DNA from: Scenedesmus sp. PABB004
Taxonomy: Eukaryota
NCBI GenBank assembly: GCA_014905635.1
Contig: JABVCE010000022.1
Location: 310,001 to 374,000 of the forward strand
Direction of reading: 5' to 3'
Length of the DNA stretch: 64,000 nt
The notes under the pieces are model-generated. The model made no database searches. It was not told the DNA's origin and saw only the letters and a program-made list of their open reading frames with translations. Each line of letters starts with the position of its first letter. Position 1 is the first letter of the stretch. Made by a program: the position numbers and the translations under genes. Below are positions 3,613-52,051 of this stretch, in pieces.

Positions 3613-5474
3613 ATGCCCAGCATGGATTGCTGCAGCGCTGACATGGAGTCCGGTCGGGGTGAGTCGCGCTGATCCGGAGCAGCAGCGCGCGGGGGTGACG
3701 CCCGTCGCCCGGCGTCGCCGAGGGCGCGGGAGGCTGGGGCGCCCTGGGCCTCTCGCCCACAGGCCGCCGACGCCGCACGCCGCAGGCGCCGCGCCGGCGC
3801 GGTCCGAGTCGGCGGCCGCCGCCGCGGGCTGCCCGCCGGGCAGCAGCAGCCAGGGCGGCGACAGCCGGGGCAGCAACGACGCCGACGCCGCCGCCGGCGA
3901 CGCGGCGCGCCGCGGGAAGGCGCCGCCGATGCAGTGCCAGGTCGAGGGCTGCGCCAGCGACCTCACCGCGGAGGGCAAGGCGTACTGCATGAAGCGCCGC
4001 CTCTGCAACGAGCACATGCGCGCCGACGCCGTCGCCGTGCGCGACCGCCAGGGGCAGTGGCGCTTCTGCTTCCAGGTGCGGAGGGGGGCGGGGCGCTCGG
4101 GGGGCGCCGCAGCGCGGCCAAGCGGCGAGCCCGCGCGCCCGGTCGGTCGGTGCCGCCGCGCCAACGCGCGCCCGCCGCGTGCCCGCCCGCCGCCCGCAGT
4201 GCGGCAAGCTCGAGCCGCTGGCGCGCTTCGAGGGGCTCAAGCGCTCCTGCCGCGTGCGCCTCGCGCAGCGCAAGCAGCGCGAGACGCGGCGCTGCGCGTC
4301 GGACGTGGGCAACGCGTACGGCCGCGGCAAGGCCGCCAGCAGGGCCGGCAGGGCCGGCCGCGGCGCCGACGCGGGCGGCGGCGGCGGCGGGCTGCTGGCG
4401 GACCTGCAGCCCGAGCTGCTGCCGCGTGTGCTCGGGGGCGTCCTCGAGGAGGGCGAGGAGGAGGAGGACGATGAGGCGGAGCGCTACGACCTGCCCACGG
4501 GCGCCGGCAGGATGCTGCTGGCGCAGGCGACCAGCTTTGGCGCGCTGCGCCCGCCCGTGTTCCGCGGCGCCTCCACCGGCCACCAAGACATGCTCAGCCT
4601 GCTGCGCCAGGCGCAGCAGGCGCCCCACGCGCTCGACGGCCACGGCCACCACCACAGCACGCCGCTGCCCACGCTCGCGCTGGGCGGCGCGCGCGGCGCA
4701 CTGGCGCACCGGCTCAGCCTCGGGCCCGCCGCCGCCTGGTCGGACGCGTGCGTGTCGGCGCCGCTGCCGGCCGTGGCGGTGCCGTGCGGCGCGGGCCCCG
4801 AGGCGGCGGCGCTCGCCGAGCACCTGCAGCGCAGCGGCAGCCTGGCGGCCCTGGCTGCCCCGTCGCCGTGCAGCGGGGGCGCGTCGGCGCCGCTGCCGGC
4901 GCTCAGCGCCGCCGCACAGCACGCGTACGGCGGGCTGTCGGGCCCGCTGCCGTCCGGCGTCGCCGCCGCCACGCGCGTGGCGGCGGGCCTAGGCGGCATG
5001 TCGGCGCCGCTGCCCCTGGCGGGCGCGGCGAGCGGCGGGCCCCACGCAGTGGGGTGCGGGCTTGAGGCGAGCGCCGACCTGTGCATGCTGCTGCTGGACG
5101 AGCTGCTGGCGGAGTGCGGCGCCGGCGGCGGCGCGCCCCCGCTGCTGCTCGGCGACGACGGGCCGCCCGCCGACGAGGCGCTGCCGTACGAGGACGCCGA
5201 GCTGCGCGGCATCCTGGAGAGCGCTCTCGAGAGCGCGACTGGCGACGCGGCGCCGCGCGCGCTCCGCGCCGGCGACGCCTGGCCGGCCAGCAGCAGCAGC
5301 AGCCAGGCCGGCGGCGGGCCGTGGCCGGCGGCCGGGGCCTGGGGCGGCGCGCTGGCTGCGAAGCGCGAGCCTGGCCTGGACCTGCAGCAGCGGGTCGGGC
5401 ACGCGCAGGCGCGGCTGGAGCAGGTCCGGCTGGCGCTCCGCGTGGCCGACCCAGCCGCCTCGGCCTGCTCCTGA
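3613..5474 (+). CDS. Second SBP-domain transcription factor (tandem paralog)
   Basis: CQVEGCASDLTAEGKAYCMKRRLCNEHMRADAV...WRFCFQ|CGKLEPLARFEGLKRSCRVRLAQRKQR, with an intron at ~4076-4199. Start at 3613 (MPSMDCC, donor ~3659) is inferred. Confidence 0.88.
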
Positions 5475-9896: not shown

Positions 9897-12086
9897 TCAC
9901 CCAAACATGCGCAGCGCGGCGAGCGCGGTGAGGGCCGCGGTGAGGCAGCCCGCGGTCACGTCGACCGTGCGGTCGTTCAGCCACGCGCCGGCGTGCGCGA
10001 GCCCGCTGATGCGCGACACGCCGGGCCCGGGTCTGCTGCTCAGCGCGCCGCGCGCGCTGTCGTAGCCAGTGAACTGCAGCGCCGCGCCCAGCAGCGAGTC
10101 CAGCAGCGACCCGATCACGCCCGCGACCAGCCCGAGCGGCAGCAGCCGCCACTGCTCCATCGCGGCCTGGCGCTGCGCGGCCGGCGGCGGCGGTGCGTGT
10201 GGGCGCCGCGGCGGGCGGCCACGCGCGCCCGGCCGCGCCCCCCCCCCCCCAGCCCGCGCTGCCCGCGGCGCACCTGCACGCCAAACACCCACAGCGTCGG
10301 CGACGCGAGCGCGGCGCCATAGAAGAGCGCGCCGATCAGCAGCCCGCCCGCCGCGGCGGCGCAGAGGCCCTGCAGCGTCACGCCGCCGTGCGTGCCGCGC
10401 CGCACGGGCTGCAGCGTCGTCGCGAGGCGCGGCTGGTCGGGCGAGAGCTGCCCCAGCTCGCGCGACCACGCGTCGCCGGCGGCGCAGGCGTACCAGCCGA
10501 GCACGGCGCCCTGCAGCAGCGTGAGGAGGTCGGCGCGCCACCCCTCCACGCTCGGCAGCGGGCCGAGGGGCAGGTCGAGGCAGCCGGCCATCGCCCCGTA
10601 AGCGACCGCCAGCACGGCCGGCACCGCGGTGGCGGCCAGCACCTGCGGACGCGCGCGTGCGCGCGCGCGCCGCGTCGGGCCAGCCGGCCCGGCTGCCTGC
10701 TGCGGCGCGCCAGCGCGCCGGCTGGCCGAGCGGCGGCCGCAGCCCCCCCCCCCTCCCCCCGCGCCCGCGCGCTGCCGCCCTGCGCGCCGGGCGCACACCT
10801 CAGGCCAGTCGCGCGGCGGCGCCGGCGCCGGCGGCGAGAGCTGCTGGTAGTCGGGGGCCTGCCGCGCCTCGCGCAGCACGCGCAGCGCGTGCGCGCTGAC
10901 CGCGTGCGCCAGCATGACAGCGCCAAAGCGCAGGCTGCAGCCGAGCGTGGCCACGCACGCGGCCGCCACGAGCACCGCGCCGGGCGGCGTCACCGCGTCG
11001 CGCTGGTACGCGCGCGCTGGCGGGGCGGGGCGGCGAGCGGCGGCGGCGAGCGGCGGCGGCGAGCGGCGGCGGCGAGCGGCGGCGGCGAGCGGCGGCGGCG
11101 AGCGGCGGCGGCGATCGGCGGCGTGAGCGGGCCGCGCTGGCACCGGCGCCGGCGCCGCGCTGCGCCGCGCCCGCAGCTGCCCCCCTCCTCGCCCCCTCAC
11201 CTGCCAGCGCCAGCGCGCCCAGCGTCGCGCCGGCCCACTGCCAGCCCAGGCCAAACGCGTGCGACGCGACCAGCGCAGCCGCGGCCGCCGCCGCGAGCGC
11301 CACGTTGCGCGCTGCGCCCAGCGCGCCTGCCCACCGGCCCGGCGGCCGCGCGCTGCGCAGCTTGTGTATCGACCCCAGCCCGCCCTCCGCCGCCGCAAGC
11401 GCCTGCTGCGCCTTGCGAATGGCGTCCTCAACGCCCGGCGCCTGCGCCGCCGGCGCCGCCGGCGGCGGATGGTGGTGCCCGCTGCCGCTGCCCGGCGCCG
11501 CCGCGCCGCTGGCGCCGGCGCCGGCCGCCGCGTGCTCCTCCCTCTGCTGCGGCTGGGACTGCGGCTGCTGCTGCTCCTGCTGCTGCTGCGGCTGCTGCTG
11601 CTGCTGCTGCGGCTGCTGCTGCTGCGGCTGCGGCTGCTGCTGCGGCTGCGGCGCTGCCGCCGCCGGGACGCCCGCTGCGCCGCCGCTGTGCGGCGCGGCG
11701 TCGCTCAGCGGCTGCAGCCCGTTGGTGCTGCCGCTGCTGCTGCCGTTGAGCGCGCGATACATCTCAGAGTAAGACTGAAACGGTGCGCTGCTCGCCGTGG
11801 TGCTCACGCCGTCCGCAGGCGCCGCGGCGGCGGGCGGCGCCGCCTGCGCGCTCGGGCGCACCGCGTCGCCGCCGCCCTTGTCGGCCGCTGCGGCCGCGGC
11901 CGCGCCGCCGCGCGGGCGGCGCAGCCTCGGCGCCGCGGCTGCCCCCGGCAGCACCGGCCGGCGCGCCCGCGCCAGGCCGCCGCCGTCCGCGCCGCCGCGC
12001 CGCGGCGCCGAGGGTGCGGCGCTGCCGCTGCGCACGGGGCGCGCCCGCCATGCCTGCTGCAGCCGCTGCGCCTGCAGCGCCTGCAT
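9897..12086 (-). CDS. DUF92/TMEM19-family (PGR/VTE6-related) membrane protein with a transit-peptide-like N-terminus
   Basis: YACAAGDAWSRELGQLSPDQPRLATTLQPVRRGTHGGVTLQG...GVIGSLLDSLLGAALQFTG matches DUF92 motifs. Several TM helices; Arg/Ala/Ser-rich N-terminus from MQALQAQR. Confidence 0.8.
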
Positions 12087-12534: not shown

Positions 12535-13038
12535 GGCGCTGCGGCGCCAGGCCCTGGCCCCGCGCGCCCTGCGCCTGCCCGGCGCCGCGCCCGCCGGCGT
12601 TTGGCCTGGCCCGGGCTGCTGCGCCGTGCATCAACAGCTGAGCAGGGCGCTGGGCTTGTCGCGCCGCGGGACGGCCTGGCCAGCGCGGTTGTCGGAGCAG
12701 CCAGGCTGGCCGGCAGCCAGGCTGGTCGGCCAGCCCGGCGCCGCGGCAGCGGCGGCGGGGGGTGAGGAAGCAGCGGCAAACGCTCTGCCTGGGAGAGGGG
12801 GACACGGCTCCGCTCTGTTTACAGTGCATCGGCGACGGCGGCGACGACGACCAGCCTGACCGCGCCCTGCTCAAGTTGTCGTGCCTGCCCACCCCCTATC
12901 CTCTCTCGCGCACCTACCCGCCCGGCCCGCGCCGCACCGCGCCCCGCCGACCGCCGACCGCCTGGCGCCTTGGAGCGTGGGCGGCGCGCAGGCCGCGTGG
13001 CCGCCGCGCGCGCTCGCGCGCTCGCACGCCGCGCCGCG

Positions 13039-15221
13039 TCACGCGTCGGCGCGGCGCGCGCGCAGCAGGCGGCGGCCGTAGCCGCCGTAATCGCTGTAAT
13101 CGCTCCCGCCCCAGCCGCTGCCGCCGCTGTAATAGGGCTGCTGATACATGCCAAAGCCGAGGCTCCCGCCCCAGGGGCTCCAGGCGCCGCCGCCCGAGGT
13201 GGAGGACGCGTACGCGTTGGCAAAGCTGCCCCCGCCGCCCCAGCCGCCGCCGCCCGCGGCGGCGTTGGCGGAGACCGACGCGGAGCTGCCGCCCCACTGC
13301 AGCAGCCGGCGGCCCGCGCCGGGGGCGGCCGACGCGAGGCGGCGGCCCCACCAGCCGCCGCCGGAGCCGGCGCTCGCGCTCGCGCTCGCGCTCGACCCGC
13401 CCCAGCCGCCCCAGGGGCCGCCGCCGGACCAGCTGTTGGCGTTGGCGTTGGCAAAGCTGTTGGACCCGCCCCAGCCGCCCCCATAATACGGGCTGTAGCC
13501 TCCCCAGCCACCGCCATAGTAGGGGCTGTAGCCGCCCCAGCCGAGGCCCCCCCAGCGCAGACCGTCGGCGGCCTTGGCGCCGAGCAGCTTGCGGCCGCCC
13601 GCGGGCGCGGGCGCGGCGCCGTCCGCGGGAGCGGCGCCAAAGAGCGACGTCAGCCGGCGGCCCCAGTAGCCTGCCGGGCGGCGCGGCGCGGCGGGGCGCG
13701 CGGCCGGGCGCGCGGCCGTCAGGCGTGCGGCGGAGGGGCGCGGGCGCGCGGTCGCGCTGGCCCGCGCCCGCGCGGCGGCGCGCCGCTCACCGCGACGGCC
13801 GTAGCCGCCGTAGCCGCCCCCCCAGCCACCGCCGTACGGCCGGCCGTAGCCGCCGTAGGGCCTGCGGGGTCGGCGGGGACGGGGGCGGGTCGGTGCGCGC
13901 CGCCGCGCAGCGACAGGGCAGCCGCGCGCTGGGGTTAAGGGTTGAGGGTTTAGGCGCATGGGCGCACCTGTAGCCGCCGCCGCCGTAGGACTGCGCCTGC
14001 GCCTGGGCCTGGGCCTGGCTCATGGAGCCGCCTGGGCGAGGGCAGCGGGGCAGGGGGTGAGGCTGCAGCGCGCGCGGGGCTGCCGTGTGCGCAGCGGGGG
14101 CGCCGCGGGTGCCGCGCCGTGGCCGTCGCGCGGCGACGCACCCCAGCCGCCGCCCATGGACTGCGCCTGAGCCTGGGCCTGCGCCGCGGAGCCTGTGGGG
14201 GCGCGCAGCGCGCGGCGGGGCGGGAGTCAGCGCACGCGCGGGCGGCTGTGCCCCGCGCGGGCGGCTGCAGCGCACGCGCGGCGCCCTCTCACCGCCCCAG
14301 CCGCCGCTGCCCGCCTGCGCCTGGGCCTGCGCCTGGCTCATGGAGCCGCCTGGCGAGGGAGCGGGGGCAGCGGTGAGCACGGGCGGCGCGGTCAGCCCCG
14401 CCCGCCCGCCCGCTCGCGCGCGGCCGGCTGTGCCCCGCGACTGCGACGTCGCGCCGCTGCTCACCCCAGCCGCCGCCCATGGACTGCGCCTGGGCCTGGG
14501 CCTGCGCCGCGGAGCTGCCCCAGCCGCCGCCGCCGCCGTAATAGGGGGAGCCCCAGTCCGCGGCCTTGGCCGACGCGGCCGACGTCGCAGCGCTCGCCGA
14601 CTTGGCCGCCTGCGCGCCCAGCAGCTTGCGCTCTGCGCGGGAGGTGCCAGGGGCGGGCCGACGGGGCGTGCCGGGGCGGACGGTGGAGGGTGGGCGGCAT
14701 GCCTGGGGCGCGGCGGCACCCGGCGCGCTCAAACAGCGGCGGCGAGCCTTGTTGGCCGCTGGTGACACGCGCCCTGGCGCCGCCAGTCCGCGGGGTCGCT
14801 GGCCGCAGCTTTGGTCGTCGCGACGGCACGCGCGGCGCGCCACGCGCGCGGCACAGCGCTCGCTGTCGGTAATCGCATCGCCCGCCGCGCGATTACCGAG
14901 AGCCCGCGCACCTGATCCACCGGCGCCGGGTCCCTCGAGCGCGCTGGCGCGAGCGGTGGCCAGCGCTGCGCACGGCGGTGAGCAGCGGGGCGGCGTCAGG
15001 CGGGGCGGGCAGCAGCGCGCAGCCTGCTGGCCGCCGGGCCGCGCGCCGCGGGCGCTGCAACGCTGGCCGTCCAGACGCGACTCGCGCGATCTGCCCGGCA
15101 GGCCGCCCGCTCGCAGCAGGCGCAGGCAGGGCGCCGGTTATCGATAATCTGATGCGCGCCCCCGCCCCGTCGCCGCTCGCGCACCGGCCGCCGCGATCGC
15201 CAGCACGACCAGCGTGCGCAT
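13039..15221 (-). CDS. Secreted Gly/Trp/Tyr/Ala-rich repetitive precursor protein, 8 exons, ~377 aa
   Basis: GT-AG exons 15221-15185, 14965-14912, 14632-14465, 14349-14293, 14192-14142, 14031-13968, 13861-13791 and 13670-13039 sum to 1134 nt in one open frame. Signal peptide MRTLVVLAIAAAALATARA; RKLL/GRRL motifs. Confidence 0.85.
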
Positions 15222-15697: not shown

Positions 15698-17118
15698 GGT
15701 GCGCTGCTGCCGGGTGCGGCGCTGCGGGTGGGGCGTGCACGCGGCTGAGCGGCGGGCGGGCCCGTGTGGCGGGGGCGGGGCGAACACGTTCCTGTTGTAC
15801 ATGTTGGAGTGGGAGGGGTCCTAACACGACAGCCCCGGGGTCGGCGCACGCGGCGCGCCAGGCGTGCGTGCCGCGAGAGCCCTGGCCCGCTCCCTGGTGG
15901 CTGCGCCGCCGCGCGCGCCGGCGCGCGCCGGCCGGCCCGCGGGCCAGGCGGCGGCGCCGCTTGCGAGGCCCAGCCGCGCGCCGGCACCGCGCTCCGATCA
16001 GCGCCACAGCTGCAGTACGCTCCGCGCACGCCGCGCCTGCCGGCTTGCAGGGGCAGCGCGCGCAGCCCGCCGGAGGGCGCCGGCGCCGCCGTGGAGCGCC
16101 GGCGGCAGCGCCGGGGCCGGCGGCGGCAGCGGCGGCGGCGGCGCGGTCCGCGGACAGGCCGCACGCCCGGCGCGTGCCGTGGCGCAGCGCGCAGCCCAGC
16201 CGCCGCGCGGCGCCGCGCACGCGTCGCGCGCCAGCCCAGGCCAGGCCGTGCACGCGCAGGGCAGCGAGGCGCGCGTCCAGGGCTGGGCAGCTGCCAGCTG
16301 ACCTCAACTGTGCTGGCTGTGGCCTGCTGGCCTGGCCAGGGGGCAAGGCAGGTCTGCAGACAGGTCTGCCTGCAGACTGCAGGTGTGACGTCACGTGCCG
16401 CGGCGGCTCGGCCTGAGCACGCCGCGTGCTGCTGCGCCGCCGCGCCGCCGCCATCGCGACTGCTGCCGCCGCGTGCCCCTTGGTGGCGAGCGATGCCGAG
16501 CGCGATCAGGGCGCCGGCCGCACTGTCACACCAGGCGCCGCTGCAGCTCGCCGTAGGCACGTGCAGGTGTCGCCGCGTGCAGCCAGGCCTCCGCGCGCAG
16601 GCCAGCCGCGCTTCGAGCGGCAGCGTGTGTGTCGGCATCCCCTGGCGCCAACATTGGCGCCGCGCGCCGCCGCCGCCGCTGCCGCCGCCGGCCCCGGCGC
16701 TGCCGCCGGCGCGCCGCGCTCCACGGCGGCGCCGGCGCCCTCCGGCGGGCTGCGCGCGCTGCCCCTGCAAGCCGGCAGGCGCGGCGTGCGCGGAGCGTAC
16801 TGCAGCTGTGGCGCTGATCGGAGCGCGGTGCCGGCGCGCGGCTGGGCCTCGCAAGCGGCGGCGCCGCCTGGCCCGCGGGCCGGCCGGCGCGCGCCGGCGC
16901 GCGCGGCGGCGCAGCCACCAGGGAGCGGGCCAGGGCTCTCGCGGCACGCACGCCTGGCGCGCCGCGTGCGCCGACCCCGGGGCTGTCGTGTTAGGACCCC
17001 TCCCACTCCAACATGTACAACAGGAACGTGTTCGCCCCGCCCCCGCCACACGGGCCCGCCCGCCGCTCAGCCGCGTGCACCGCCCCACCCGCAGCGCCGC
17101 ACCCGGCAGCAGCGCACC
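15698..17118. repeat. Long inverted repeat (arms 15698-16145 and 16663-17118, ~517-bp spacer); foldback-like element or inverted duplication
   Basis: By direct reading the arms are reverse complements, apart from a 1-nt indel, a 7-nt indel and an isolated mismatch. GCCA lies immediately outside both ends. Confidence 0.95.
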
Positions 17119-20946: not shown

Positions 20947-22323
20947 ATGCTCGGCCAAGCGCCGCGGCTGCGCAGCCACGTGTCCAGCGCCGCGGGAGCC
21001 GCCAGCTGCTCGGCCGCGGGCCAGGTGGGGCTGCGGGGCCGGCGTCCGGGCGCGCTGCTGGATGCCGCCCGGCGCAAACGCCCTCACGGCGCCGTGCCGC
21101 CCCGCGCAGGCTCGCGCGCTCGGCCGCCCGAGGCGGGTCTCCGTGCGCTGCTTCCAGCAGCATGCGCCGCCGGCGGCGTCCGCAGGCGCGCCGGGGGCGG
21201 GGCGCTCGCCGCGAGGTCGCTTCACCCCGCGCCCCGCAGCGCGCGGCGCGGCCGCTCAGCCCGCCATCGCGCCTGCCCCGCAGTCGGCTCCATCAACAAG
21301 GTCAAGCTGAGCTTCAAGCTCCCCTATCACTGCACCTTTGGGCAGGAGGTCTGCCTCGTCGGCTCGGGCGAAGCCCTGGGCAACTGGAGCGTCGAGAACG
21401 CCAAGCCCATGCACTGGACCGACGGCGACGTGTGGGAGGTGGAGTTTGAGGTCACCACGGGGTGCGTGCGGCGCCGCGCCCCCCGCCGCGCCCCCCGCCT
21501 CGCCCGCGCGGGCGCCGCTGCTGCCGCGCGCGCCGCCCGACCGCGCACCGCCGCGCACCGCGCCGCGCCGCCGCCAGGCCCGAGGTCGAGCTGGAGTACA
21601 AGTACGTCGTGCGCAGCACCGACGGCGGCGTGCTGTGCTGGAAGCCGGGCGAGAACTGCCAGATCCGCGTGCCCGTGTGGCTGCAGGAGGAGAAGGCCAT
21701 CGCGGAGGGCGTGCTCGTGCGCGACGCGTGGGACGGCTCGCTGCAGGACATCGAGCTCGAAGTCACGGGCTTCACGCGCGCCGAGTTCACGGAGGAGGAG
21801 GAGCGCGCGGCGGTGCAGTCGGCGGTGCGCGCGCGGCGGCGCGCCCGCGCGCGCGCGGCGCCGACCGCGCCGGCAGCAGCTGCGCCAACGCCGGCGCCGG
21901 CGGCCCCCCTGCAGCCGCTCGCCGCCGACGGCGCGTGCTCTGCCCGCTGCGCGGCCGCAGGTCGACCGAGCGCTGCACGAGCTGTCGCACGCAATGACGT
22001 CGTCAGCGTCGGTGCAGACCAAGAAGCAGGGTGCGGCCGCCCGCCGGCGCGGCTGGGCAGCGGCGGCAGCGGCGGCAGCGCGGCCGCACCGGCTGCCGCC
22101 ACCGACCGCTGGCCGACGCGTGCTGCCGCTGCCCGCCCGCGCCCTCGCAGACCCGACCGCGCCGGAGGTGCTGCAGGCAGACCGCCTGGTCGCGGCCGCC
22201 GCGCGCAAGGCGGTGGCGATGCACCGCGCGTTTGAGGCCAGCAAAGCGCTGCAGGCGCTGCCCATGCCCGCGGGCCAGGAGGTGGCAGCCGAGCAGCCGC
22301 AGCAGCGCCCGGACGCCGCGTGA
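20947..22323 (+). CDS. CBM20 starch-binding-domain protein, probably plastid-targeted
   Basis: KLSFKLPYHCTFGQEVCLVGSGEALGNWSVENAKPMHWTDGDVWEVEF...LEYKYVV...WKPGEN is a CBM20 signature, followed by a helical C-terminus. The N-terminal exon structure is uncertain. Confidence 0.85.
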   Translation: MLGQAPRLRSHVSSAAGAASCSAAGQVGLRGRRPGALLDAARRKRPHGAVPPRAGSRARPPEAGLRALLPAACAAGGVRRRAGGGALAARSLHPAPRSARRGRSARHRACPAVGSINKVKLSFKLPYHCTFGQEVCLVGSGEALGNWSVENAKPMHWTDGDVWEVEFEVTTGCVRRRAPRRAPRLARAGAAAAARAARPRTAAHRAAPPPGPRSSWSTSTSCAAPTAACCAGSRARTARSACPCGCRRRRPSRRACSCATRGTARCRTSSSKSRASRAPSSRRRRSARRCSRRCARGGAPARARRRPRRQQLRQRRRRRPPCSRSPPTARALPAARPQVDRALHELSHAMTSSASVQTKKQGAAARRRGWAAAAAAAARPHRLPPPTAGRRVLPLPARALADPTAPEVLQADRLVAAAARKAVAMHRAFEASKALQALPMPAGQEVAAEQPQQRPDAA

Positions 22324-23261: not shown

Positions 23262-24326
23262 TCAAATGCTCTGTGTGATGTACTGCACGATCTTGTCGGG
23301 CGGCGTGTCGACGTACTGCAGGTAGTCCACGATCTTCCGCAGCCCGCCGTCCACGTCCAGCCCCAGCAGCGACGGCCGCCGCGACACCGCGGCGCCGACG
23401 TCGGACACGCCGACGGACGCCAGAAAGTCGAAGAACGGCGCGAGGCGCCCCGCGACGTCGTAGCTGAGCACCGGCGGGTGCGCGGTCACGACCTGTGGCC
23501 GCCGGCCGGGCGGGCGCCGGGCGCGCGCGCGTGTGGGCAGGGGAGGGGCGCGCGGGGGCGGGCGGGGGCCGGCGCGCGCCCTGCGCAGCCTGCGTGCGCG
23601 CGGCTGCGCATGCGTCGCGCGCGGCGGCGGGGCGCCGCCGGCTCACCGCCACGATCTGCTGCTGGCTGAGCCCCTGCCCCTGCAGGAACGCGACCACGGG
23701 CTGCATGTCCTGCTCCACGCTCAGCGGCCGCGCGTTGGCGTTGACGGAGCGCTTGGCGTCATTGTACTGCACAAACCTGCGGCAGCGCGCGCGGCGCGCG
23801 TCGGCGGCGCGCGTCGGCGGCGGCGCTGCGCGCGGCCGCGCGTCGGCGGCGCGCGTCGGCGGCGCGCGTCGGCGGCGGCGCTGCGGGCGGCCGCGCAGCG
23901 GCGCGGCCGGCGCACAGGCTGTTGGGGTTTGTCGCGATGTCGAGCACGCGCGCAATCTCAGCCGTATTGGTGAGGCCGATCTGCTTGAGGTAGGCCGCCG
24001 CCGCGAGGTAGGTGGGGTCGACCTGGCCGGCGAGGCCTGCCGGCGGCGCGCCCCGGGGGCGTCGGGGCGGTGGGGCGCTGTGCTCCCGCGCGGGCGCGGC
24101 CCGCCGCGCCCCACGCGCGCGCGCACGCACCCGAGCCGCGCGCCGACTGCGCCTCGGGGGCGCCCGCAGCGGCCGCGACGCGCCGCCGGCCCGCCGCGGC
24201 GGCGTGGCGCGCGCGCGGCGGCGGCGCGAGTGGCCGCTGGCCGCTGCTCGCGGCCCGCGGCGGCCGGCTGCGCCCGGGCCGCGCCGGCGCGGCGGCGGCC
24301 GCGCCGCGCGCCATAGCCACGGCCAT
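23262..24326 (-). CDS. Small organellar mTERF-family protein, 4 exons
   Basis: Transit-like N-terminus, then YLKQIGL..., LSVEQDMQPVVAFLQGQGLSQQQIVA|VVTAHPPVLSYDVAGRLAPFFDFLASVGV...RRPSLLGL, typical mTERF repeats. Confidence 0.82.
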
Positions 24327-24937: not shown

Positions 24938-27900
24938 ATGGCGCACGGCGTCGTGCCCGCCGGCAGCGCGCTGCGCGGCGCCAACGGCTACCTTGGCGGC
25001 CTGCTCGGCGGCGGGCGCCGCGGCGACGACGAGCCGGCCGGCGCGGCCGCAGAGGAGCGGCAGTCGCTGCTCGCGGCCGGCGGCGCGGCGGCGTTTGAGC
25101 TCGGCCCCCGCGCCCCCGACGCCGCCGGCGGCGCCTGCCCGGGCCGCGCGCCGCCGCCGCCGCCGCGCCTGCCCGTGAGCAGCAGCCCCGGCGGCGGCGG
25201 CCCGCGGCCGAGCGGCGCCGGCGCGCGCGGCCGCGCGCCGCCGCCCGCGCCGCCGCTGCGCACCGCGGGCGCCGGCGGCGCGCCGGGGCGGCCAAACCTT
25301 GAGAGTCTCGACTATGAGCTGGCTGAAAACACAGTGTATCGCACAGACACGGCGGCGCGCACGCACCTCGACCACATCACAAAGTCGGGAGCCAAGTGGA
25401 GCATGTGCTTCGCGCTCGGTGCGTGCGACGCTGCGCGGGCGCGGGCGGGCGGGGCCGCGGTCGCGGCGCCGCCGCCCATGACTAGCGCCGCCGCGGCGCG
25501 CAGGCGTGCTGACCGCGGTCGCCGCGTTTGCCGTGAACCTGGGGGTGGAGAACCTCGCGGGCTTCAAGGTGCGCCGCCGGCCAGGGGCTGGGCCGCGCGC
25601 AGGCCGGGACGCCATGGGCCGGGCCGCAGCGCGCCCGGCCGCGCCGCCCGCAGCCGCCCGCCGGCCGCCGGCCGCCGGCCGCCGCCCACGCCGCCCCCCG
25701 CCCGCGCGCCGCCGCCGCCCGTGCGCCGCCGCCGCCGCCGCGCCCAGTTCTGGGCCACGCTGACGCTTCTCGACCGGGGCCAGGCGCTCGCGAGCTACGC
25801 CGTCTACGCCGGGACCAACGTCGCGCTCGTCACCGCGTCCGTGTGGCTCACGACCGCGCTCGCGCCCGCTGCGGCGGGCAGCGGCATTGCAGAGGTCAAG
25901 GTGCGCCGCGAGGGTTTGGGGCGGTGGGCGTTGGGGCGGCGGGCGTCTGGGCGGCGGGCGTTGGGGCGGCGGGCGTCTGGGCGGCGGGCGCCGGGCGGTG
26001 CCGGCCCTGCTCCCCCGTGCGCGCTGGCCCCCGCGCTGCGGACCCACCGCCGCCCTCCCTCCCCCCCCCCCCCCCCACACACACGTCACGCACACGTCAC
26101 GCGCACTCGCCAGGCGTACCTCAATGGCATTGACGTCCCCGGCATCTTCCTGTGCCGCACGCTCGCGGTCAAGCTGCTCGGCAGCGTCGGCGCGGTCGCG
26201 GGCGGGCTCGCCGTCGGCAAGGAGGGGCCCTTTGTGCACGCCGGCGCCGCGATGGGCGCGCTGCTCAGCCAGGCGCGCGGCGCGCGGGCGGCGGCGCGCG
26301 GGTGGCGGCGCGCGGGTGGCGGCGTGCGGGCGGCGGCGCGCCGGCGGCCCAACGCGCGCCGGCGGCCCACGCGCCGCGCCGCGCCGCAGGGCGGCACCGG
26401 CGACGCGCACCTGCCCTGGTTCAAGCGCTTCTGGAATGACCGCGACCGCGCCGACATGGTCGCCTGCGGCACCGCGGCGGGTGCGGCACCGCGCCGCCGC
26501 AAACGCGCCGCCGCCGCCGCTGGCCCGCCGCCGCCGCGGACGACGCGCCCGGCGGCGCGCGCAGGCGTCGCGGCGGCGTTCCGCGCGCCCGTGGGCGGCG
26601 TGCTGTTTGCGCTGGAGGAGATGACCAGCTGGTGGCGCAACCAGCTGCTCTGGTACGCCTTTTTCACCACCGCCGTCGTCAGCGTCACGGGTGCGCGCCG
26701 CGCCGCGTTGGCGGGCCATGGGGGGAGCCTCCCCTAGCGCTGCGTCACGCCGCCGCCGCCGCCGGCCCACGCGCCGGGCCGCCGCGCGCCGCCGCCGCGC
26801 CGCCGCCGCCGCCGCCGCGCCGCGCCGGCAGTGCGCACGCTGATGCGGCTGTGCAGCGCCGAGAAGACGGGCGCATGCGGGTTCTTTGGCGCGGGCGGGT
26901 ACCTGCTGTATGAGATCACAGAGGGCCAGGCGCGGCGGCGGCGGCGGTGGCGGCGGCGGCAGCGGCGCGGGGCGTGCAGCAATGGGGGAGAGAGGGGGCC
27001 GTGCAGGGCGTGTGGCCGGGGCTGGCGCGGCGGGCGCGGGGCGGACGTGCGCCGCCGCCGACACCGCCGCCGCCGCCGCGCCGCGTGTGGGCGCGCAGTC
27101 CAACTTTGAGGCGCTGGAGCTGCTGCCGATGCTGCTGCTGGGCGTGATCGGCGGCCTGCTGGGCAGCGCGTTCAACCACCTCAACGCCGCGCTCAGGTGC
27201 GGGCGCAGCATGTGCCGCGCGCGCGGCGTGCGGGCCGCGGCGCATGCAGCGCGCTGGCGCCGCGCTGCGCCAGGGGATGCTGTGGGCCACGGGCCGGGCC
27301 TCGGGCCACCGCCGGCTGGGCCCGCCCGGCGGCCGCGGCGGCGGTCGGCCGCCCGCGGCCCCGCAGCCCGCCGGCCCCACGCGGCCCGCCGCGGCCCGCC
27401 GCTGCGCCGCGATGCGCCGCGCAGCGAGGTGCGCAAGGCGCGGCTCGCGCGCCACGGCGCGCGCGGGCGGCTGTGGGAGGGCGCCGCGGCGGCGCTGCTC
27501 GTCTCGACCGTCTCCTTCTTGCTGCCGATGCTCGTGGCCTGCCGGGTGCGCGCCCGCGGCGCGCCGGCCGCCGGCCGCCGTCGCCCGCCCTGCCCTCCCG
27601 CGCGCCGTGACGCCGCCCGCCGCCACCGCTGTGCGCGCACGCGCGCGCGCGCGCGCAGCCGTGCCCGCCGGACGTGGCCGAGGGCTGCCCGCGCAGCGAC
27701 AACAGCCACAGCGGCAACTTTGTCGGCTTTGGCTGCGCCGCGTCGAGCCAGTACAACGACCTGGCGACCATCTTCTTCAACACACAGGCACGCGCAGTGC
27801 GGGGAGGAAGGGGCGGCGCCGCGCGTGGGCGGGGGCGGACAGAGGTGCAGGCGGCGCCCGCCAGGGCGGTCCCGCACGCAGCCGCCCACAGCTCCCGCCG

Positions 27901-30196
27901 CGCCGCGCCGCGCCGCGCCGCGCCTCCTGCCGCGCCCGCCAGGACGACGCGATCCGCAACCTCTTCAGCAGCCGCACCAAGGCCGAGTACGGCGTCGGCG
28001 CGCTCACGACCTTCACGGTCACGTTCTTCGCCCTCGCCGTCGCCTGCTACGGCCTCGCCGTGCCCACGGGGCTCTTCGTGCCGTCCATCCTCTGCGGCGC
28101 CGCGTACGGGCGGCTCGTGGGCGTGTTCGTCGCCGACATGCGCCCCGGCGCGACCGGCGCGATCGACGAGGGCACGTACGCGCTGCTCGGCGCGGCGAGC
28201 TTCCTCGGCGGCGCGATGCGCATGACGGTCGCGACGTGCGTGATGCTGCTGGAGCTGACCAACAACCTGCCGCTGCTGCCGATGATGATGCTCGTCACGC
28301 TCGTGGCCAAGGCGCGCGGCGCGCGCGCGCGCGGGGGCCCGGGGAGGGCTCAAGGGCCAAGGGTTCAAGGGCTGAGGGCGCTCAGGGCTCAGGGCTTAAG
28401 GCTCAGCGAGGTTTCACGGGCTGCGGGGCTTCCCTTGTGGGGCTCGACCAGGGCTCGACGGGGGCTGGCGCCCTCCCTGCGCGCGCGCCCCGCCTGCCCA
28501 CGACCGCCCCGCGCCGCCCCGCCCCGTGCCGCACGCGCCGCGCCGCGCCGCGCCGCGCCGCGCCGCGCGCAGGCTGTCGGCGACGGCACGGGCGTGAAGC
28601 CGCTGTACGAGAGCCTCATCGACCTCAAGGGCCTCCCCTTCCTCGAGCGCAGCCCGCACGGCCTCATGCGTCACATCACCGCCGCCGAGGCGGCCGGCCA
28701 GCCCGCGGTCAGCTTTGCGCGCGTCGAGCGTGTCGGCACGCTGCTCGCCGTGCTGCGCGGCACGCCGCACAACGGCTTTGCCGTGCTCGGGTCGGCGCCC
28801 GACGGCGAGCCGCACATCCTTGGCATCGTGCTGCGCAGCCAGCTCGCGGTGCTGCTGCGCAGCCGGCGCTGCTTCCAGCCGACGCCCTTCGTGTCGGAGG
28901 CGCGCCGCCGCCGCCGCGCCGCGCCGCCGCGCCCGCGTCGCGCCCCGCGCGCTGCGCCCGCGCCGCGCCCCGCGCGTCTCGCCCACCATGTCCCCCGCTG
29001 CACGCCCCCCCCCCCCACACACACACGCACACACACGCGCGCCCAGGTCGCGGGGCGCGTCGCGTTCAGCTACCAGCAGAGCGACTTTGCGCGCCCCATC
29101 AGCGAGCCGCCGCCCGACGCGGCCGGCCTGAGCCTGAGCGAGCAGGAGCAGGGCATGTACATCGACCTCGGGCCCTACGCAAACCCCAGCTACTATGTGG
29201 TCCAGGCGCGCGCGGCAGCAGCGGCGGCGGCGGCGGCGGCGCGCCCGCCCGCGGCAGCGCACCGCCGCGCGCGCCGCGCGCGCTGCTGCGCGGCGGCCGC
29301 GCCGCGCCGCGCCGGGCCGCGCGCGCGCGCGGCGGGCGCGCGCAAGGCGCCGCCCAAGCGCGCGCCGCCCAAGCGCGCGCGCCGCCCAAGCGCGCGCGCC
29401 GCCGCGCGCGCGCGCGCCGCCCGCGCGCGCGCGCCGCCCGCGCGCGCACGCCGCTCACCCTCTCCCCCCCCCTTCCCCCTCTTGCAGGAGGACACGTCGC
29501 TGGCCAAGGCCTACACGCTCTTCCGCTCCCTCGGGCTGCGCCACCTCGCCGTCATCCCCCGCGCGTCGGCGGTCGTGGGCGTCATCACGCGGCACGACCT
29601 CCAGGCCAGCGCGCTCGAGGCGACCTGCCTGGAGCAGCTGACGCTCGGCGCGGGTGCGCGGCGCGGCGCGGGGCGGGGCGGGGCGGGGCGGGGCACAACG
29701 CGGCGCCCGCCCACCTCGCGCGCGCGCCCGCGCAGGCGTTGCGGGGCTGGCGAGCGCGCTGCGCGGCACGGTGCGCGACGCGGTCGACGCGTACCAGCAC
29801 CAGGCGACCACCAGCAGCAGCGGCGCGCCCAGCCCGCCGCCGCCGGCGGCGACGGCGCTGCCGCCGCCGCTCGCGTCGCTGGCGCCGGGCCGCGACCGGG
29901 GCGGCGGCGGCGGAGCCGGCGGCGCCGGCGCGCAACGGCCGGGCGGCAAGGCGCCCGCGCGGCTGGGCAGCGGGGAGGCGCGCGGCACGCCCATGGCGGC
30001 CGCGGCCTCGGCGCTGGAGATCGCGGCTGACGGGAGCAGCTGCGGCAGCGGCAGCGGCGCGCTCGCGTGGGGCGCGCCGCCGCGCGGCGGCAGCGGCCGC
30101 CCCGGCTTGGCCAGCCGGCGCAGCTCGGCCAGCGACGGGTGGGAGGACTTTGACGCGCCGGACGGCGGCGGCGCCGCGCGGCAGGCGGCGCGCTGA
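24938..30196 (+). CDS. CLC family anion/H+ exchanger with two CBS domains (CLC-d-like), 15 exons
   Basis: ESLDYE, GSGIAEVKAYLNG, GKEGPFVH, AFRAPVGGVLFALEE, YNDLATIFFNTQDDAIRNLFS, PTGLFVP, RMTV, HNGF and LGLRHL motifs all assemble in frame using 8 GT and 6 GC donors. Confidence 0.96.
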
Positions 30197-30421: not shown

Positions 30422-32602
30422 ATGGAGGGCTCGCCGCCGGACCCGGACGGCTCGTGCGCGGAGCTGGGCGGCGCCGCTGCGCCGCCGCCGCCGCGGCGCG
30501 GCCCCGGCGGCAAGTCCAGCCACGTCGCGTCCATGCGGTCGCTCGGGCTCCTCCACGACCTGCAGGCGCGCGCCGACCCTGCGCCGCCGACCTGCAGGCG
30601 GCGGCCGCCCGCTGCTCCGCCGCCGCGCCGCTCACGCGCCGCGCCGCATGCGCGCCGGGCCGGACCCGCGCAGGAATACGTCACGAGCTTGCAGGCCACC
30701 GCCGATGAGCAGGCCAGCGAGCTGGCGCGGCTGCGGGGAGAGAAGCGAGAGGCAGAGAGGGCGCGAGCAGCGCAGCGCGGCGCGCGCTGCGGCTCCCGCG
30801 CGCGGCGGCTCTCGCGCCGCGCCGCGCGCTGGCGCCCCGCGCCGGCTGGCGCCCACGGCGCCCGGCTGCGCCGGCGCAGGTGCTGGCCAGGGAGCGGGGC
30901 GCGGCGCCGGTGGTGCAGCACTTTGCCGCGTCCGAGGTGGCCGAGCTGCCGCCGCGGCTGCGCGCGCTGTTTGAGGATAACAAGGTGCTCAAGGAGCAGG
31001 CGCGGCGGTACAAGGCGCGGGCCGCCGACGCGGAGCGCGGCGCCGCCGCGGCGGAGCAGCAGTGCCTCGCGCTGCAGGCGGCGGTGCGGGCGCTCAAGCT
31101 GCAGCTGGCGGAGGGCGCGAGCAGTGCCGAGGCGCTGGCGGCGGAGGCGGGGCTGCGGGCGCAGGCCGACGCGGCCACGCGCGCGCTGGAGGTGCGGCGC
31201 CGCTGGAGGGCGCGGCAGTTGCCAGCTGCCACCGCCAGCCCGACCAGGCGCAGCCGGGTGCGGGCGAGCTGCCCCAGCCGCCGCCGCCGCCGCCGCCGCA
31301 GAAGCTGCAGCACGCGCACGCGGTGCTCGGCGCAAAGCTGGAGACCGACGCGCGGAGCCACCGCCAGGCGCTGGCGGCGGGCGCGCGCGAGCGCGGCGCG
31401 CTGGAGCAGCAGGCGGCGGAGCTGGCCGTGCAGGTGGAGGCCAAGGACCGCGAGGCGCGCGCCGCCGTGCTGGCCGCGCGGCACGCGCAGCGCGCGCTGG
31501 CGGAGGCCCGCGGCGCCGCCGCGCGCGCGGCCGCCGGCGCGGACGCGCGCGTGGCTGCCGCGGTGGCCGAGGAGACCGCGCAGCACAGAGCGGTCGCCGA
31601 CGCGCGCGTGCACCTCATGCTCTGCGTTCTCACCGACCACGGCCCGGCGCCGGGGCGAGGCGGCGGCCGCGACGCCGGCGGCGAGTACGCGCCGCCGCGG
31701 CAGCAGCTGGCAGCCGCGGCGACGTGCGGCGGGGGCGACGACGGGCCGGGCGGCGGCCCCGGCGGCAGCTCGAGCTTGGGCGCCGGCACCGGCGGCGGCG
31801 GCGCGCGCGCTGGGCCGCCCATGAGCCGAGCGGACGCGGCGCTCGTGCTCCAGGCGGGCGCGCGCGGGTTCCTGGCACGGCGCGCGCTGCGGCGGCAGCG
31901 CGCGGCTGAGCAGCAGGCGGCGGTGCTCATCCAGGTGCGCGCGGCGGCGGCGCGCCCACGGCGGGGCGCGCAAGGGCCGGCTGCGGCACCGCCAGCGCGG
32001 CGCCGGGCGGCGGCGACCCGGCTCACGCGCACGCGGCCGGCCCGCCCCGCCCGTCCGCGCAGGCGGGCGCGCGGGGCATGCGCGCGCGGCGGCAGGTGCA
32101 GGCAATGCTCCAGGCTGCGCAGCTGCCCGTGGCGCTGGCGTGCGTGGGCGGCGGCGGCGCGAGCGGGCGCGCTTCGTGCGCGGCCAGCCTGCCCATGGAG
32201 CTGCCGGCGCTCGAGCCCGGAGCGCAGCCGCACGAGGCGGCTGCGCGGCGCGCAGCCAGCTGCAGCGGCGCCGCGGCGGCGTGCGGCCCGGCGCGCGGCG
32301 CGGCGAGCCCCGCCGGCGGCGGCAGCCGGCGGGGGGCGAGCAGCAGCGGCGAGGCGCCTGGGGCGGGGCGGGCGGCGCCGACGGCCAGGGTCCCGCGAGC
32401 GCCGCTGAAGCCGCCCCTGCCACGGCAGGCCGGCTCTGCCTCGCCGCGCGTCGGAGGCAGGCCCGGCGGCGGCAGGGCTGCCAGCGCAGCGGCGGGCGGC
32501 GCTGGCGGCGGCGGGGCGGCCGGCGCCTCCCAGCGCTCGCAGCAGCGGCGGCCAGCGAGACCGGCGCAGCAGGATCTGCCGCCTGGCGCGGGCGTCGCTT
32601 GA
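30422..32602 (+). CDS. Coiled-coil protein with two IQ calmodulin-binding motifs (possible lebercilin-like segment)
   Basis: ELPPRLRALFEDNKVLKEQARRYK coiled coil; AALVLQAGARGFLARR and AAVLIQ|AGARGMRARR fit IQxxxRGxxxR. The 5' exon boundaries are uncertain. Confidence 0.65.
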
Positions 32603-49716: not shown

Positions 49717-50234
49717 TGCTGCGGGTGCTCCGGAATGCCTGCCATCAGCGCTGCCTGGAGCTGCAGCTGCTGGTGCTGCGCGAGCCCGTGGCCGAAGCTG
49801 GCGGGCGCGGGCGCCATGCTGCCAGCCAGCGCAGCGGCGACCGCGGCAGACGCCGCGTCGGCGCTGCTGCTGGCGGGCCCGCTGCGGCCGCCTCCGCCGC
49901 CGCTGCTGGCGCGGCGCGCGGGCATGGCCTGCTGGCCGATGCCGCCGCCGCCGCTCCCGCGCGGGCCGCCCAGGTGCGCCTGGCCGCCGCCCCAGTGGCC
50001 GCCCTGGTGCTCCATGCTGCTTCGCCGGCCGGCGTTGGACGCCGCGAGCGCCGCCTCCACCGCCTGCGCGCCCGCGCTCATGTGCTGGCCCAGCTGCTGC
50101 GCGCTGCCGCCGCTGGCGCTGCCGCCGCCGCCGGTGCTGCCGGCGCTGAGGCGCTTCTGGGCCACCTCCTGCGCCGCGACCAGCGAGCCCCAGGTGTCGA
50201 CGCGCGTCGGCACTGCGCCGGAGCGGCTGGCCAG

Positions 50235-50329
<95 letters not shown>

Positions 50330-51959
50330 CGCCGCGGCCCTCGCCGTGCGCGTGCTGGTGGTTGCCGCCGCCGCCGCCACCGCCGCCGCCGTTGGCGCCG
50401 CCGTGCTGGTGCTGCTGGTGCTGCTGCTGGTGCTGCTGGTGGTGCTGCTGCTGCTGGTGCTGCGCCGCCTGCTGCGGCGCCATCGCCAGCGGCATCATGT
50501 GCTGCGGCGCGACCATCACGCCGCCCTGCGTCATGTAGGGCGCCATGCCGGCCATGCCCTGCACGCCGGGCATCTGCATCTGCATCATGTGCTGCGGCAC
50601 CGCCATCTGCATGCCCGCCGGCACCGCGAGCATCTGGCCCTGCCCGCCGCTGACCGGGAGCTGGATCATCATCGGCGCCATGCCCCCGCCGGGCATGAGC
50701 GCGGGCACGAGCTGCCCCATGTGCCCGCCCGCCGCCGCGACCGCGGCCGCCTGCTGCACGAGCAGCTCGTTGCTCGTCGTCGCGAGCAGCGCCTGCAGCG
50801 GCTGGAACGCGCCCGGCGGCGGCGGCGGCGGCTGCCCGCCGCCGCCCGCGCGGTGCGTCGCGCAGACCGCCGCGCCGGGCGGCAGCCGGCCCTCGCGCAG
50901 CATCGCCAGCATCTCGGCCGGCTCGTACGGCCCCTGCGCCTTGGCGCTGCCGTGCTCGCCCGCGAGGACGTACCACACCGGCGCCATGTGCGGCGGCGTA
51001 TTGCCCGCGGTGAATAGCTGCGCCGCGACCGCGAGCGGGTCGAGCGGCGGGCCGCCGCCGAGCACGCCCCCGAGGCCGGCGCCGCCGGGCAGCGCGTGCA
51101 TCGCGCCCGCCGGCAGCGCGACGTAGCCGCCGCCGGGCGCGGCGATGAACTGGGGCGCCATGGCCATGCCGCCCTGCATGCCCCCCGCCATGCCCTGGCC
51201 GCCGCGGGCCTTGGAGGGGCTCGGCGGCATCATGCCGCCGCCGCCGCCGGCGCCGCCACGCGGCCCGCCGCCCTGCATGCCGCCACGCTGCTGCTGCTGC
51301 TGGCCCTGCTGCCGCTGGCCCTGCTGCTGGCCCTGCTGCTGCTGGCCCTGCTGCTGGCCCTGCTGCTGCTGCTGCTGCTGCGGCGGCGGCGGCTTGGCGC
51401 CGCCGTGCTGCTCGCCGCCGTCCATGCTGTGCCGCGCGCCGTCGGCGCCCATCGGCGACGCCGACGCCGCGCGCGCGGCGGTCGCCGCCTGCGCCGCGGT
51501 GTGCTGCTGCATCACCGCCGACGTCACCACCTGCCCCAGCGGCGCCACGCTGCCGCTCGCCATGTGCCGCACCTGCGCCGGCTGCCCCGGGCCGCCCGCC
51601 TGCACCGAGTCGCGGCTGGAGCAGGGCACGAGCGCGTAGCCCGCAGCCGCCGCCTCCAGCAGCGCGCCGAGCGGCGCAAACGCGCGCGCCACGGGCATGT
51701 GGTTTGAGCTGCCGGCCATGGCCGCCACGGGCGTGGCGTCGGTGAAGCGCAGCTGGCCGCTGGGCTGCAGGTACGCCTGGTACATCTGAAGGCCGGTGAA
51801 GGGCCCCGCAAACGCACGCTCGCTGCGCTGCACCCACCAGCGCACCTGCGCGGCGGTGGCCGCCGCCTGGTCCTGCAGGAACAGCAGCGCCGCGGCCTGC
51901 ATCAGCGCCGGCGTGTGCGCCAGGCCCTGGCCCTGCGCGCCGCTGCCCGCGTCGCCGCG

Positions 51960-51993
<34 letters not shown>

Positions 51994-52017
51994 TCGGCCG
52001 CCGCGCCGTTGCCGGCG

Positions 52018-52051
<34 letters not shown>

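Follow-up and report, generated by a model that had tools for sequence, protein, structure and literature searches.

Introduction

At positions 13039–15221 of a 64,000-nucleotide stretch of contig JABVCE010000022.1 of Scenedesmus sp. PABB004 (assembly GCA_014905635.1, forward-strand positions 310,001 to 374,000; the whole stretch is called the window here and is numbered from its first letter), a minus-strand gene is predicted. Its product, for which no relatives were detected, is a candidate green-algal precursor of polyprotein-like, secreted and low-complexity character whose linkers are of S1P/RXL type. An earlier annotation of the same letters, referred to as the original prediction, had described a secreted neuropeptide-style polyprotein that releases several, possibly amidated, peptides. 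The reading favoured here, tentatively and at somewhat under even odds, is that of a secreted, disordered pro-protein that would be cut at R-[RK]-L-x linkers into three blocks. Very little is known of the proteolytic maturation of green-algal secreted proteins beyond Chlamydomonas gametes.

Plant S1P/SBT6.1 and SBT3.5 cut at RxxL/RxLx, the canonical mammalian S1P motif; mapped cuts are RRIL↓A in RALF23, which is lost when RR is changed to GG, and GRRLM↓GSG in PROSCOOP12 (PMC13082318). RKLL and RRLL are processing motifs of Arabidopsis pro-pectin-methylesterases (10.1101/2022.07.28.501549). The original prediction had named R[RK]LL as a plant S1P/SBT6.1 site, and the two sources bear it out as a motif of S1P/SBT6.1 or pro-pectin-methylesterase type (10.1101/2022.07.28.501549, PMC13082318). 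The known substrates of plant and animal S1P/SBT6.1 and of SBT3.5 (RALF23, GOLVEN/CLEL6, PROSCOOP12 and the group-2 pectin methylesterase pro-proteins) pass through the secretory pathway and are cut at RxLx/RxxL, a motif that the Scenedesmus protein carries behind its putative signal peptide. These substrates have one or two sites and yield one short peptide or enzyme, whereas the Scenedesmus protein has six sites and three low-complexity blocks. It has no sequence homology to them (no Pfam family), and its cleavage is predicted from the motifs. RKLL and RRLL tetrapeptides reportedly appear in papers on nairovirus glycoproteins, too. We are aware of no natural substrate for an S1P-like protease of algae, although no dedicated literature search was made for one. 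With six literal S1P-type motifs in a single chain, the protein would be a convenient natural reporter of such an activity.

In the diatom silaffin precursor Sil1p, an RXL stands after the signal peptide, and the units terminate in RRIL/RRNL, a tetrapeptide no longer found in the mature peptides; RXL has been proposed as a general endopeptidase signal of diatom wall proteins, with cingulins, frustulins and silacidins named as well (PMC4557024). The Scenedesmus protein shares this layout of a signal peptide, an early RXL and low-complexity units with RR-x-L-like ends, and the likeness is one of grammar only. The diatom units are Lys/Ser-rich and silica-forming, whereas the Scenedesmus protein is Gly/Trp/Tyr-rich with Lys at 5 of 377 residues, and comes from the green lineage, judged by the SBP, CBM20 and other exons of the window, with no silica link.

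Chlamydomonas has 21 S8 subtilases, among them proprotein convertase (PC)-like ones and one type I membrane protein whose nearest human counterpart is SKI-1/S1P (PMC6313938). The amidating enzyme PAM is reported from Chlamydomonas, Gonium, Volvox and Ostreococcus and PHM from Coccomyxa and Chlorella variabilis, while PAM is given as missing in land plants (PMC6529398). Its occurrence in Chlamydomonas, to which the original prediction had appealed, is documented together with amidated products; mass spectrometry of ectosomes is reported to have found only three amidated peptides, two of them from protein C-termini ending in -GRRR and -GR (PMC6919629). The candidate precursors of Chlamydomonas reinhardtii (Luxmi et al. 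2018, 2019; among them the GATI-amide precursor Cre03.g204500) are described as secreted and domainless with paired-basic and G-basic-basic sites, which is also the predicted outline of the Scenedesmus protein. Their proven amidated products come from C-termini or one internal cut, whereas the Scenedesmus protein ends in a 7-residue basic tail after RRLL. No sequence similarity to these candidate precursors was found.

Two other groups invite comparison. The Gly/Tyr-rich neuropeptide-like proteins (NLP) and caenacins (CNC) of nematodes were first named "neuropeptide-like" for the look of their processing sites and were later treated as antimicrobial peptides (PMC2453101). Secreted and rich in Gly and aromatic residues, they are the nearest compositional analogue; they are small single-block animal precursors, whereas the Scenedesmus blocks are longer, barely cationic and without detectable homology to them. 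Plant structural glycine-rich proteins (GRPs) combine a signal peptide, Gly-X repeats with Tyr and an extracellular structural role, and the predicted Scenedesmus protein may resemble them in this. The usual Gly threshold for such proteins is above about 60% (60–70% in classic cases). The Scenedesmus protein differs with 29% Gly (0.30–0.36 in the blocks) and with unusually abundant Trp (21 of 377 residues). Classic GRPs are not known to have R[RK]LL punctuation.

Results and discussion

Predicted protein and its block layout

The 377 residues comprise Gly 105, Ala 72, Ser 46, Tyr 23, Gln 21, Trp 21, Arg 20, Leu 18, Pro 13 and Lys 5, and the whole chain contains no Cys, no His and no N-x-S/T. 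The N-terminus has a textbook signal-peptide layout and is a putative signal peptide, in agreement with the original prediction. Residues 3–16 form an uncharged hydrophobic core (mean Kyte–Doolittle value 2.41), the most hydrophobic 11-mer is residues 4–14 (3.03, with 0.88 for the best other stretch in the protein), and A-R-A before Ser20 provides the small residues of the −3/−1 rule. The signal peptide and the absence of a transmembrane helix were judged by eye from hydropathy and this rule; hydropathy over the whole protein gave no further hydrophobic stretch beyond the N-terminus.

The features of the protein are as follows, from the N-terminus on.

14943..15221, minus strand: signal-peptide-like N-terminus by hydropathy, residues 1–20, split by intron 1
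14619..14630, minus strand: site 1, (E)RKLL, residues 31–35, about 12 residues past the predicted signal-peptide cut
13792..14618 (introns included), minus strand: block M1, residues 36–167, 132 amino acids; Gly 0.30, aromatics 0.11
13648..13659, minus strand: site 2, (G)RRLT, residues 171–175
13582..13653, minus strand: spacer 1, 24 amino acids, Ala/Pro-rich, from site 2 to the end of site 3; ends in GGRKLL
13582..13596, minus strand: site 3, GRKLL, residues 193–197
13339..13581, minus strand: block M2, residues 198–278, 81 amino acids; Gly 0.36, aromatics 0.20; ends in WWGRR
13333..13347, minus strand: site 4, GRRLA, residues 276–280
13300..13338, minus strand: spacer 2, 13 amino acids, Ala/Pro-rich, from site 4 to the end of site 5; ends in AGRRLL
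13300..13314, minus strand: site 5, GRRLL, residues 287–291, followed by Gln292
13069..13299, minus strand: block M3, residues 292–368, 77 amino acids; Gly 0.32, aromatics 0.18; Gln first, YGRR last
13063..13077, minus strand: site 6, GRRLL, residues 366–370, followed by a basic 7-residue C-terminal tail

The putative signal peptide is thus followed by a pro-piece of about 15 residues ending in ERKLL, by M1, spacer 1, M2, spacer 2 and M3, and by the tail LLRARRADA. Block M1 opens with an Ala/Ser head, continues with four Gln/Ala-GGW units, which match exons, and finishes in a Tyr/Gly tail with YGRR at its end; the hexapeptide GYWGRR stands directly after it. Four P-Y-Y-(G/S)-G-G stretches occur in the protein, and G-G-W-G-G stretches also recur. 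Without the linkers and with the closing RR counted, M1 has 6 basic and 1 acidic residues, M2 has 4 and 1, and M3 has 2 and 2, with a pI of 6.0.

These features match the description in the original prediction. Its motifs are all present: ERKLL (31–35), YGRR (164–167), YWGRRL (169–174), GGRKLL (192–197), WWGRRL (274–279), AGRRLLQ (286–292) and YGGYGRRLL (362–370). So are the three Gly/Trp/Tyr-rich blocks, the Ala/Pro spacers that split them (24 and 13 residues long), and Gln292, which comes directly after RRLL and opens M3.

Pfam returned no family for exon 8 and none for exon 3. For exon 8 alone, AlphaFold gave a mean pLDDT (predicted local distance difference test) of 43.2 and a pTM (predicted template modelling score) of 0.12, with one five-residue helix and no other secondary structure; run on a single sequence, the program has little power. 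The model fits an intrinsically disordered, low-complexity chain.

The basic–basic–Leu motif

The recurring unit is [G/E]-R-[R/K]-L-[L/T/A]. It occurs six times, as four R[RK]LL plus RRLT and RRLA, and begins with Gly in five. Chance occurrence was evaluated by shuffling the mature part 20,000 times. R[RK]LL was observed 4 times (shuffle mean 0.002), [WYF]GRR 4 times (0.033), GR[RK]L 5 times (0.013) and pairs of the form [RK][RK] 8 times (1.42), counts that none of the 20,000 shuffles reached. In the six-frame translation of the 64-kb window, the frequencies per 377 residues were 0.05 for R[RK]LL, 0.03 for [WYF]GRR and 0.09 for GR[RK]L. The rest of the window contained scattered single motifs only, with no second cluster and no other Gly-Trp/Gly-Tyr-rich stretch.

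Motifs with a basic pair hold 10 of the 15 Leu and 16 of the 23 Arg plus Lys of the mature part as counted from residue 21, and the linkers therefore carry most of the charge and most of the Leu. Leu follows six of the eight basic pairs (P 1.4e-7, given 4.2% Leu), and Gly precedes six of the eight (P 0.01, given 29% Gly), with an aromatic residue before that Gly in four. The unexpected feature is therefore basic-basic-Leu and not Gly-basic-basic. Of the two signals named in the original prediction, it is the one with Leu after the basic pair, and not the one with Gly before it, that is statistically striking. Leu in that place points to an RxLx-type cut after Leu, which would leave ends of the form ...GRRLL, and such ends are no PAM substrates unless four residues are trimmed. 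As a grammar, S1P-type RxLx/RxxL or diatom RXL linkers appear to fit better than the amidation reading.

The neuropeptide-style polyprotein of the original prediction would call for an S1P-like cut after R[RK]LL, a convertase cut after aromatic-G-R-R, trimming by a carboxypeptidase B-like enzyme, and amidation by PAM to Trp- and Tyr-amides with a signalling or antimicrobial role. We hold it to be very improbable. Gly before six of the eight pairs, with aromatic plus Gly before four, speaks for it but is only mildly unexpected at 29% Gly. The protein has the properties by which precursors were selected in the published work, namely a signal peptide, paired basics, amidation sites and no domains (PMC6313938), yet 331 of 771 Chlamydomonas secreted proteins satisfy the same criteria, and the three amidated peptides detected are described as coming from the ends or near-ends of large proteins. 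Chlamydomonas has active PAM, with those three products (PMC6919629), and PAM or PHM is reported from several chlorophytes including non-ciliated ones (PMC6529398). Two proteases would be required on overlapping sites (G-RR↓LL against RRLL↓). The products would be 77–132 residues long. The nematode Gly/Tyr-rich NLPs, for their part, appear to be "neuropeptide-like" by history only and are candidate antimicrobials (PMC2453101). Among 77 exon-like pieces of the window scanned with Pfam, no protease, carboxypeptidase or PAM-like exon was found.

Of the neuropeptide grammar, a putative signal peptide, the paired basics, the Gly before the pairs and the lack of a domain are there; it is unspecific in a GC-rich green alga, and several copies of short, similar peptides are not present. 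The products would not be of neuropeptide size, as blocks of 132, 81 and 77 residues are small proteins. Such a grammar alone has low predictive value in GC-rich algal genomes.

Gene structure

The gene as rebuilt from the sequence has eight exons and seven introns, and its coding sequence of 1134 nt comprises 377 codons. It starts with the ATG at 15221 and stops with the TGA at 13041–13039, so that the coordinates 13039–15221 given in the original prediction are the exact stop and start. The model is a prediction from sequence only. All seven introns are GT..AG, with donors GTG(A/C)G and acceptors that end in CAG.

15185..15221, minus strand: exon 1, 37 nt, ATG and the first 12 codons of the signal peptide; codon-usage score +1.05, G+C at third codon positions (GC3) 1.00
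14912..14965, minus strand: exon 2, remainder of the signal peptide, then the first part of the short pro-region; 17 codons, score −0.67, the weakest of the eight
14465..14632, minus strand: exon 3, the RKLL site and then the M1 head; score +0.53
14293..14349, minus strand: exon 4, Gln/Ala plus GGW unit of M1; part of a duplicated two-exon unit (repeat D1)
14142..14192, minus strand: exon 5, Gln/Ala plus GGW unit of M1 (repeat D2)
13968..14031, minus strand: exon 6, Gln/Ala unit of M1, ends in GGGGY (repeat D1)
13791..13861, minus strand: exon 7, Tyr/Gly-rich end of M1, closes with YGRR (13792–13803)
13039..13670, minus strand: exon 8, 210 codons and the stop; [G/E]R[RK]L sites 2 to 6, both spacers, M2 and M3
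12819..12823, minus strand: TGTAA, a likely poly(A) signal 216 nt downstream of the stop; the minus strand of the whole 64-kb window has just two copies

UGUAA is presumably the green-algal poly(A) signal. G+C is 0.73–0.83 in every 2-kb bin of the window, introns included, an extreme value for a nuclear contig of a eukaryote. Almost every one of the six frames is open; lists of open reading frames are therefore useless, and codon-position statistics are needed. A codon table was trained on 1,844 codons from Pfam-supported exons within the window. With this table, seven of the eight exons have positive scores, and all seven introns, read through in frame, have negative ones. Among the six frames, only the proposed one is positive in exon 8 (+0.36 bits per codon; others −0.31 to −0.99) and in exon 3 (+0.53; others −0.01 to −1.34), and GC3 of the coding sequence is 0.93. 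The frame of exon 3 has no ATG upstream as far as 15137, and exon 1 is therefore required for the start. The hydrophobic core is encoded jointly by exons 1 and 2. The locus is probably a genuine gene in the nucleus of a very GC-rich green alga.

Exon 2, with its negative score, and intron 7, which is open and scores near zero, are the weak points of the model. Intron 7 (13671–13790, 120 nt) is in frame and stop-free, with G+C 0.925, GC3 0.95 and a score of −0.10; if it were kept in the transcript, 40 additional residues, rich in Arg and Ala and including more RR pairs, would stand between YGRR and GYWGRRL. Introns 2–6 likewise have no stops in the read-through frame, as expected at such G+C. 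It is nevertheless quite unlikely that the gene is unexpressed or mis-modelled (by wrong 5′ exons or retention of intron 7), or that its hydrophobic start is no secretion signal and the product an intracellular low-complexity protein of GW/RG type. The two weak points, the openness of nearly every frame in DNA of 80% G+C and the absence of a homologue among the results of the searches with exon 8 would allow for such an error, but seven canonical introns restore one frame, and intron positions are homologous in the duplicated units. The sole positive coding score of the proposed frame in exons 3 and 8, the need for exon 1 as the start, the hydrophobic core built across exons 1 and 2, and TGTAA at the expected distance also stand against it.

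A plus-strand Pro-rich gene, resembling those of hydroxyproline-rich glycoproteins, was considered and rejected, as the plus frames have negative codon-usage scores and, in exon 8, even the best of them is interrupted by 11 stops. An Ago-hook-type GW protein was likewise rejected as the principal reading, given the signal-peptide-like start.

About 500 nt upstream of the ATG, a 370-nt inverted repeat (15730–16099 and 16716–17085) has arms that are 99% complementary and lie 616 nt apart. It could be a foldback element, one like a miniature inverted-repeat transposable element, or an assembly artefact.

Internal duplication and retention of the motif

A recent internal duplication accounts for part of the gene. 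The end of exon 3 with its intron is 88% identical over 81 nt to exon 5 with its intron (D2); within the 69-nt family D1, exons 4 and 6 show 81% identity. Between M2 and M3, the cores share 75% DNA identity over 87 nt (D3), and only these two blocks have an alignable core.

The six motif sites lie outside alignable DNA of this kind. Across 15 pairs of sites, the 12-nt motif is 78% identical, whereas the 24-nt flanks upstream and downstream are 40% identical each, which is the in-frame background of the coding sequence (38 ± 12%). Synonymous differences, CGC/CGG and CTG/CTC, occur inside the motif. The motif has therefore been retained, or re-created, where the surroundings are no longer alignable, and this argues for a constraint on the motif itself. 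The view of the original prediction that the punctuation by basic-pair motifs is non-random is upheld by the shuffles and by the identity of motif against flank.

The duplicated exons bear on the main rival, that of an unprocessed structural glycine-rich protein of the wall or matrix. Secreted whole, it would pack or cross-link through its Tyr/Trp-rich Gly blocks (for example by YY pairs), and the basic/Leu linkers would serve as charged hinges, either binding anionic polymers of the wall or holding the chain in solution. We consider this account, hinges included, on the unlikely side, though a serious contender. It covers the composition (Gly 105, Tyr 23 and Trp 21 of 377, no Cys) and the tandem duplication of exon-sized repeat units (D1, D2), as in many structural proteins, and it agrees with the signal-peptide-like start, the disorder given by AlphaFold and the four P-Y-Y-(G/S)-G-G stretches. 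Glycine-rich proteins are structural wall components of plants, as Ringli et al. (2001) are said to have described. What it does not cover is the retention of a protease consensus: the 78% identity of the motif beside flanks at background is left unexplained, as is Leu after the basic pair (P 1.4e-7) in the exact form of a known protease consensus. Moreover, the Gly fraction of the mature part, 0.29, is well under the 60–70% of classic plant GRPs. Should the protein remain uncut, it would still be unusual as a glycine-rich extracellular protein with much Trp, made by an alga of extreme G+C.

Proposed processing

The most economical reading is that of one protease grammar, R-[RK]-L-x, used six times in a secreted pro-protein. 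From the sequence we infer secretion, cleavage, the kind of protease and the function, as follows. The signal peptide would take the protein into the endoplasmic reticulum. The linkers would be recognised by a subtilase of the secretory pathway, similar in kind to S1P/SBT6.1 or SBT3.5, which would cut after the fourth residue of RxLx/RxxL; alternatively, a kexin-like enzyme might act on them, cutting after the basic pair. Cleavage would remove both Ala/Pro spacers, the short N-terminal pro-piece and the basic C-terminal tail, and the products would be three nearly uncharged Gly/aromatic polypeptides of 8–13 kDa.

Outside the cell, the released blocks may be self-associating wall or matrix material, or defensive glycine-rich peptides; a role of this kind, in the wall, the matrix or defence, would be the most likely, rather than one as hormone-like signals. 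Self-association is plausible because of the repeated P-Y-Y-G-G-G and G-G-W-G-G stretches, and keeping the charge in removable linkers would suit self-associating polypeptides. Release of the blocks would mean that RXL-polyprotein delivery of self-associating wall or defence polypeptides exists outside diatoms.

Several points weigh against a processed pro-protein. The hydroxyproline-rich wall proteins of Chlamydomonas are reported intact in its secretome, so that wall proteins need not undergo processing (PMC6313938). The same source counts 756 proteins with convertase-type sites and 331 with G(K/R)(K/R) among 771 soluble signal-peptide proteins of Chlamydomonas (PMC6313938); paired-basic and G[KR][KR] motifs would thus be very common in green-algal secreted proteins, whether or not they are used. 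Internal duplication explains part of the repetition; since the six sites did not arise independently, the shuffle statistics make the case look stronger than it is. The blocks are not strongly cationic by their predicted charge (M3 has a pI of 6.0), unlike most antimicrobial peptides. The searches with exon 8, given below, found neither an orthologue nor a paralogue, and the apparent orphan status is weakly established.

A bolder form of the processed pro-protein follows the logic of silaffins. An S1P-like subtilase would make six RxLx cuts; the blocks, solubilised by the linkers until freed, would self-assemble extracellularly or act as a new class of defence peptides, and some may be Trp- or Tyr-amidated by PAM after RRLL trimming. 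This combination we rate as improbable.

Search for relatives

Homology searches were made with the translation of exon 8 (209 amino acids). A word index with HMMER over proteins of 114–366 amino acids gave none at E ≤ 0.01 among 8000 scored candidates. The ESM Atlas gave no usable match, and the best E value among PDB sequences was 0.3. None of 598 pattern matches in metagenome contigs and none of 589 in prokaryote genome contigs was confirmed. HMMER and tblastn discount low-complexity matches, and these blanks are weak evidence of absence. In the literature on green-algal glycine-rich wall proteins, no relative was found described; one Chlamydomonas wall study gives 8% Gly (PMC10837150).

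In one DNA run (X1), 122 of 151 aligned pieces were less than 90% alike, and 62% of the aligned sequence runs on unlike the window; the pieces, which are short, are read as probable GC-rich low-complexity noise. A single 261-nt contig of this run, labelled freshwater metagenome, matches 13808–14068 with zero differences. The run may be the window's own assembly sample, and the contig match is therefore not independent evidence.

Surrounding window

The Pfam scan of the 77 exon-like pieces placed the following domains in the window.

3869–4340, plus strand: SBP domain, matches on two exons
9900–10657, minus strand: DUF92
21283–21504, plus strand: CBM20
23265–23528, minus strand: mTERF
26108–29673, plus strand: CLC channel with CBS domain

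Further matches were to a thioesterase, an ADP-ribosylglycohydrolase, GYF, ribosomal protein L3 and the LTN1 ubiquitin ligase. As SBP domains occur in the green lineage only, the window is taken to be nuclear DNA of a very GC-rich green alga. A possible second SBP-type gene lies at 353–760 on the plus strand, about 3.5 kb from the one at 3869–4340; its Cys/His pattern was recognised by eye, with no Pfam match at E ≤ 0.001.

Coiled-coil exons at 30856–31970 on the plus strand contain an IQ motif and resemble Lebercilin (E 0.00095, below the Pfam cut-off), which is too weak to infer cilia. The presence of cilia in this alga would bear on PAM.

In the minus-strand intervals 49962–52121 and 52146–54104, a 720-codon open exon, poly-Gln/Gly-rich, adjoins exons with GYF matches. 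Together they appear to form one large GYF-domain gene with extensive low-complexity tracts.

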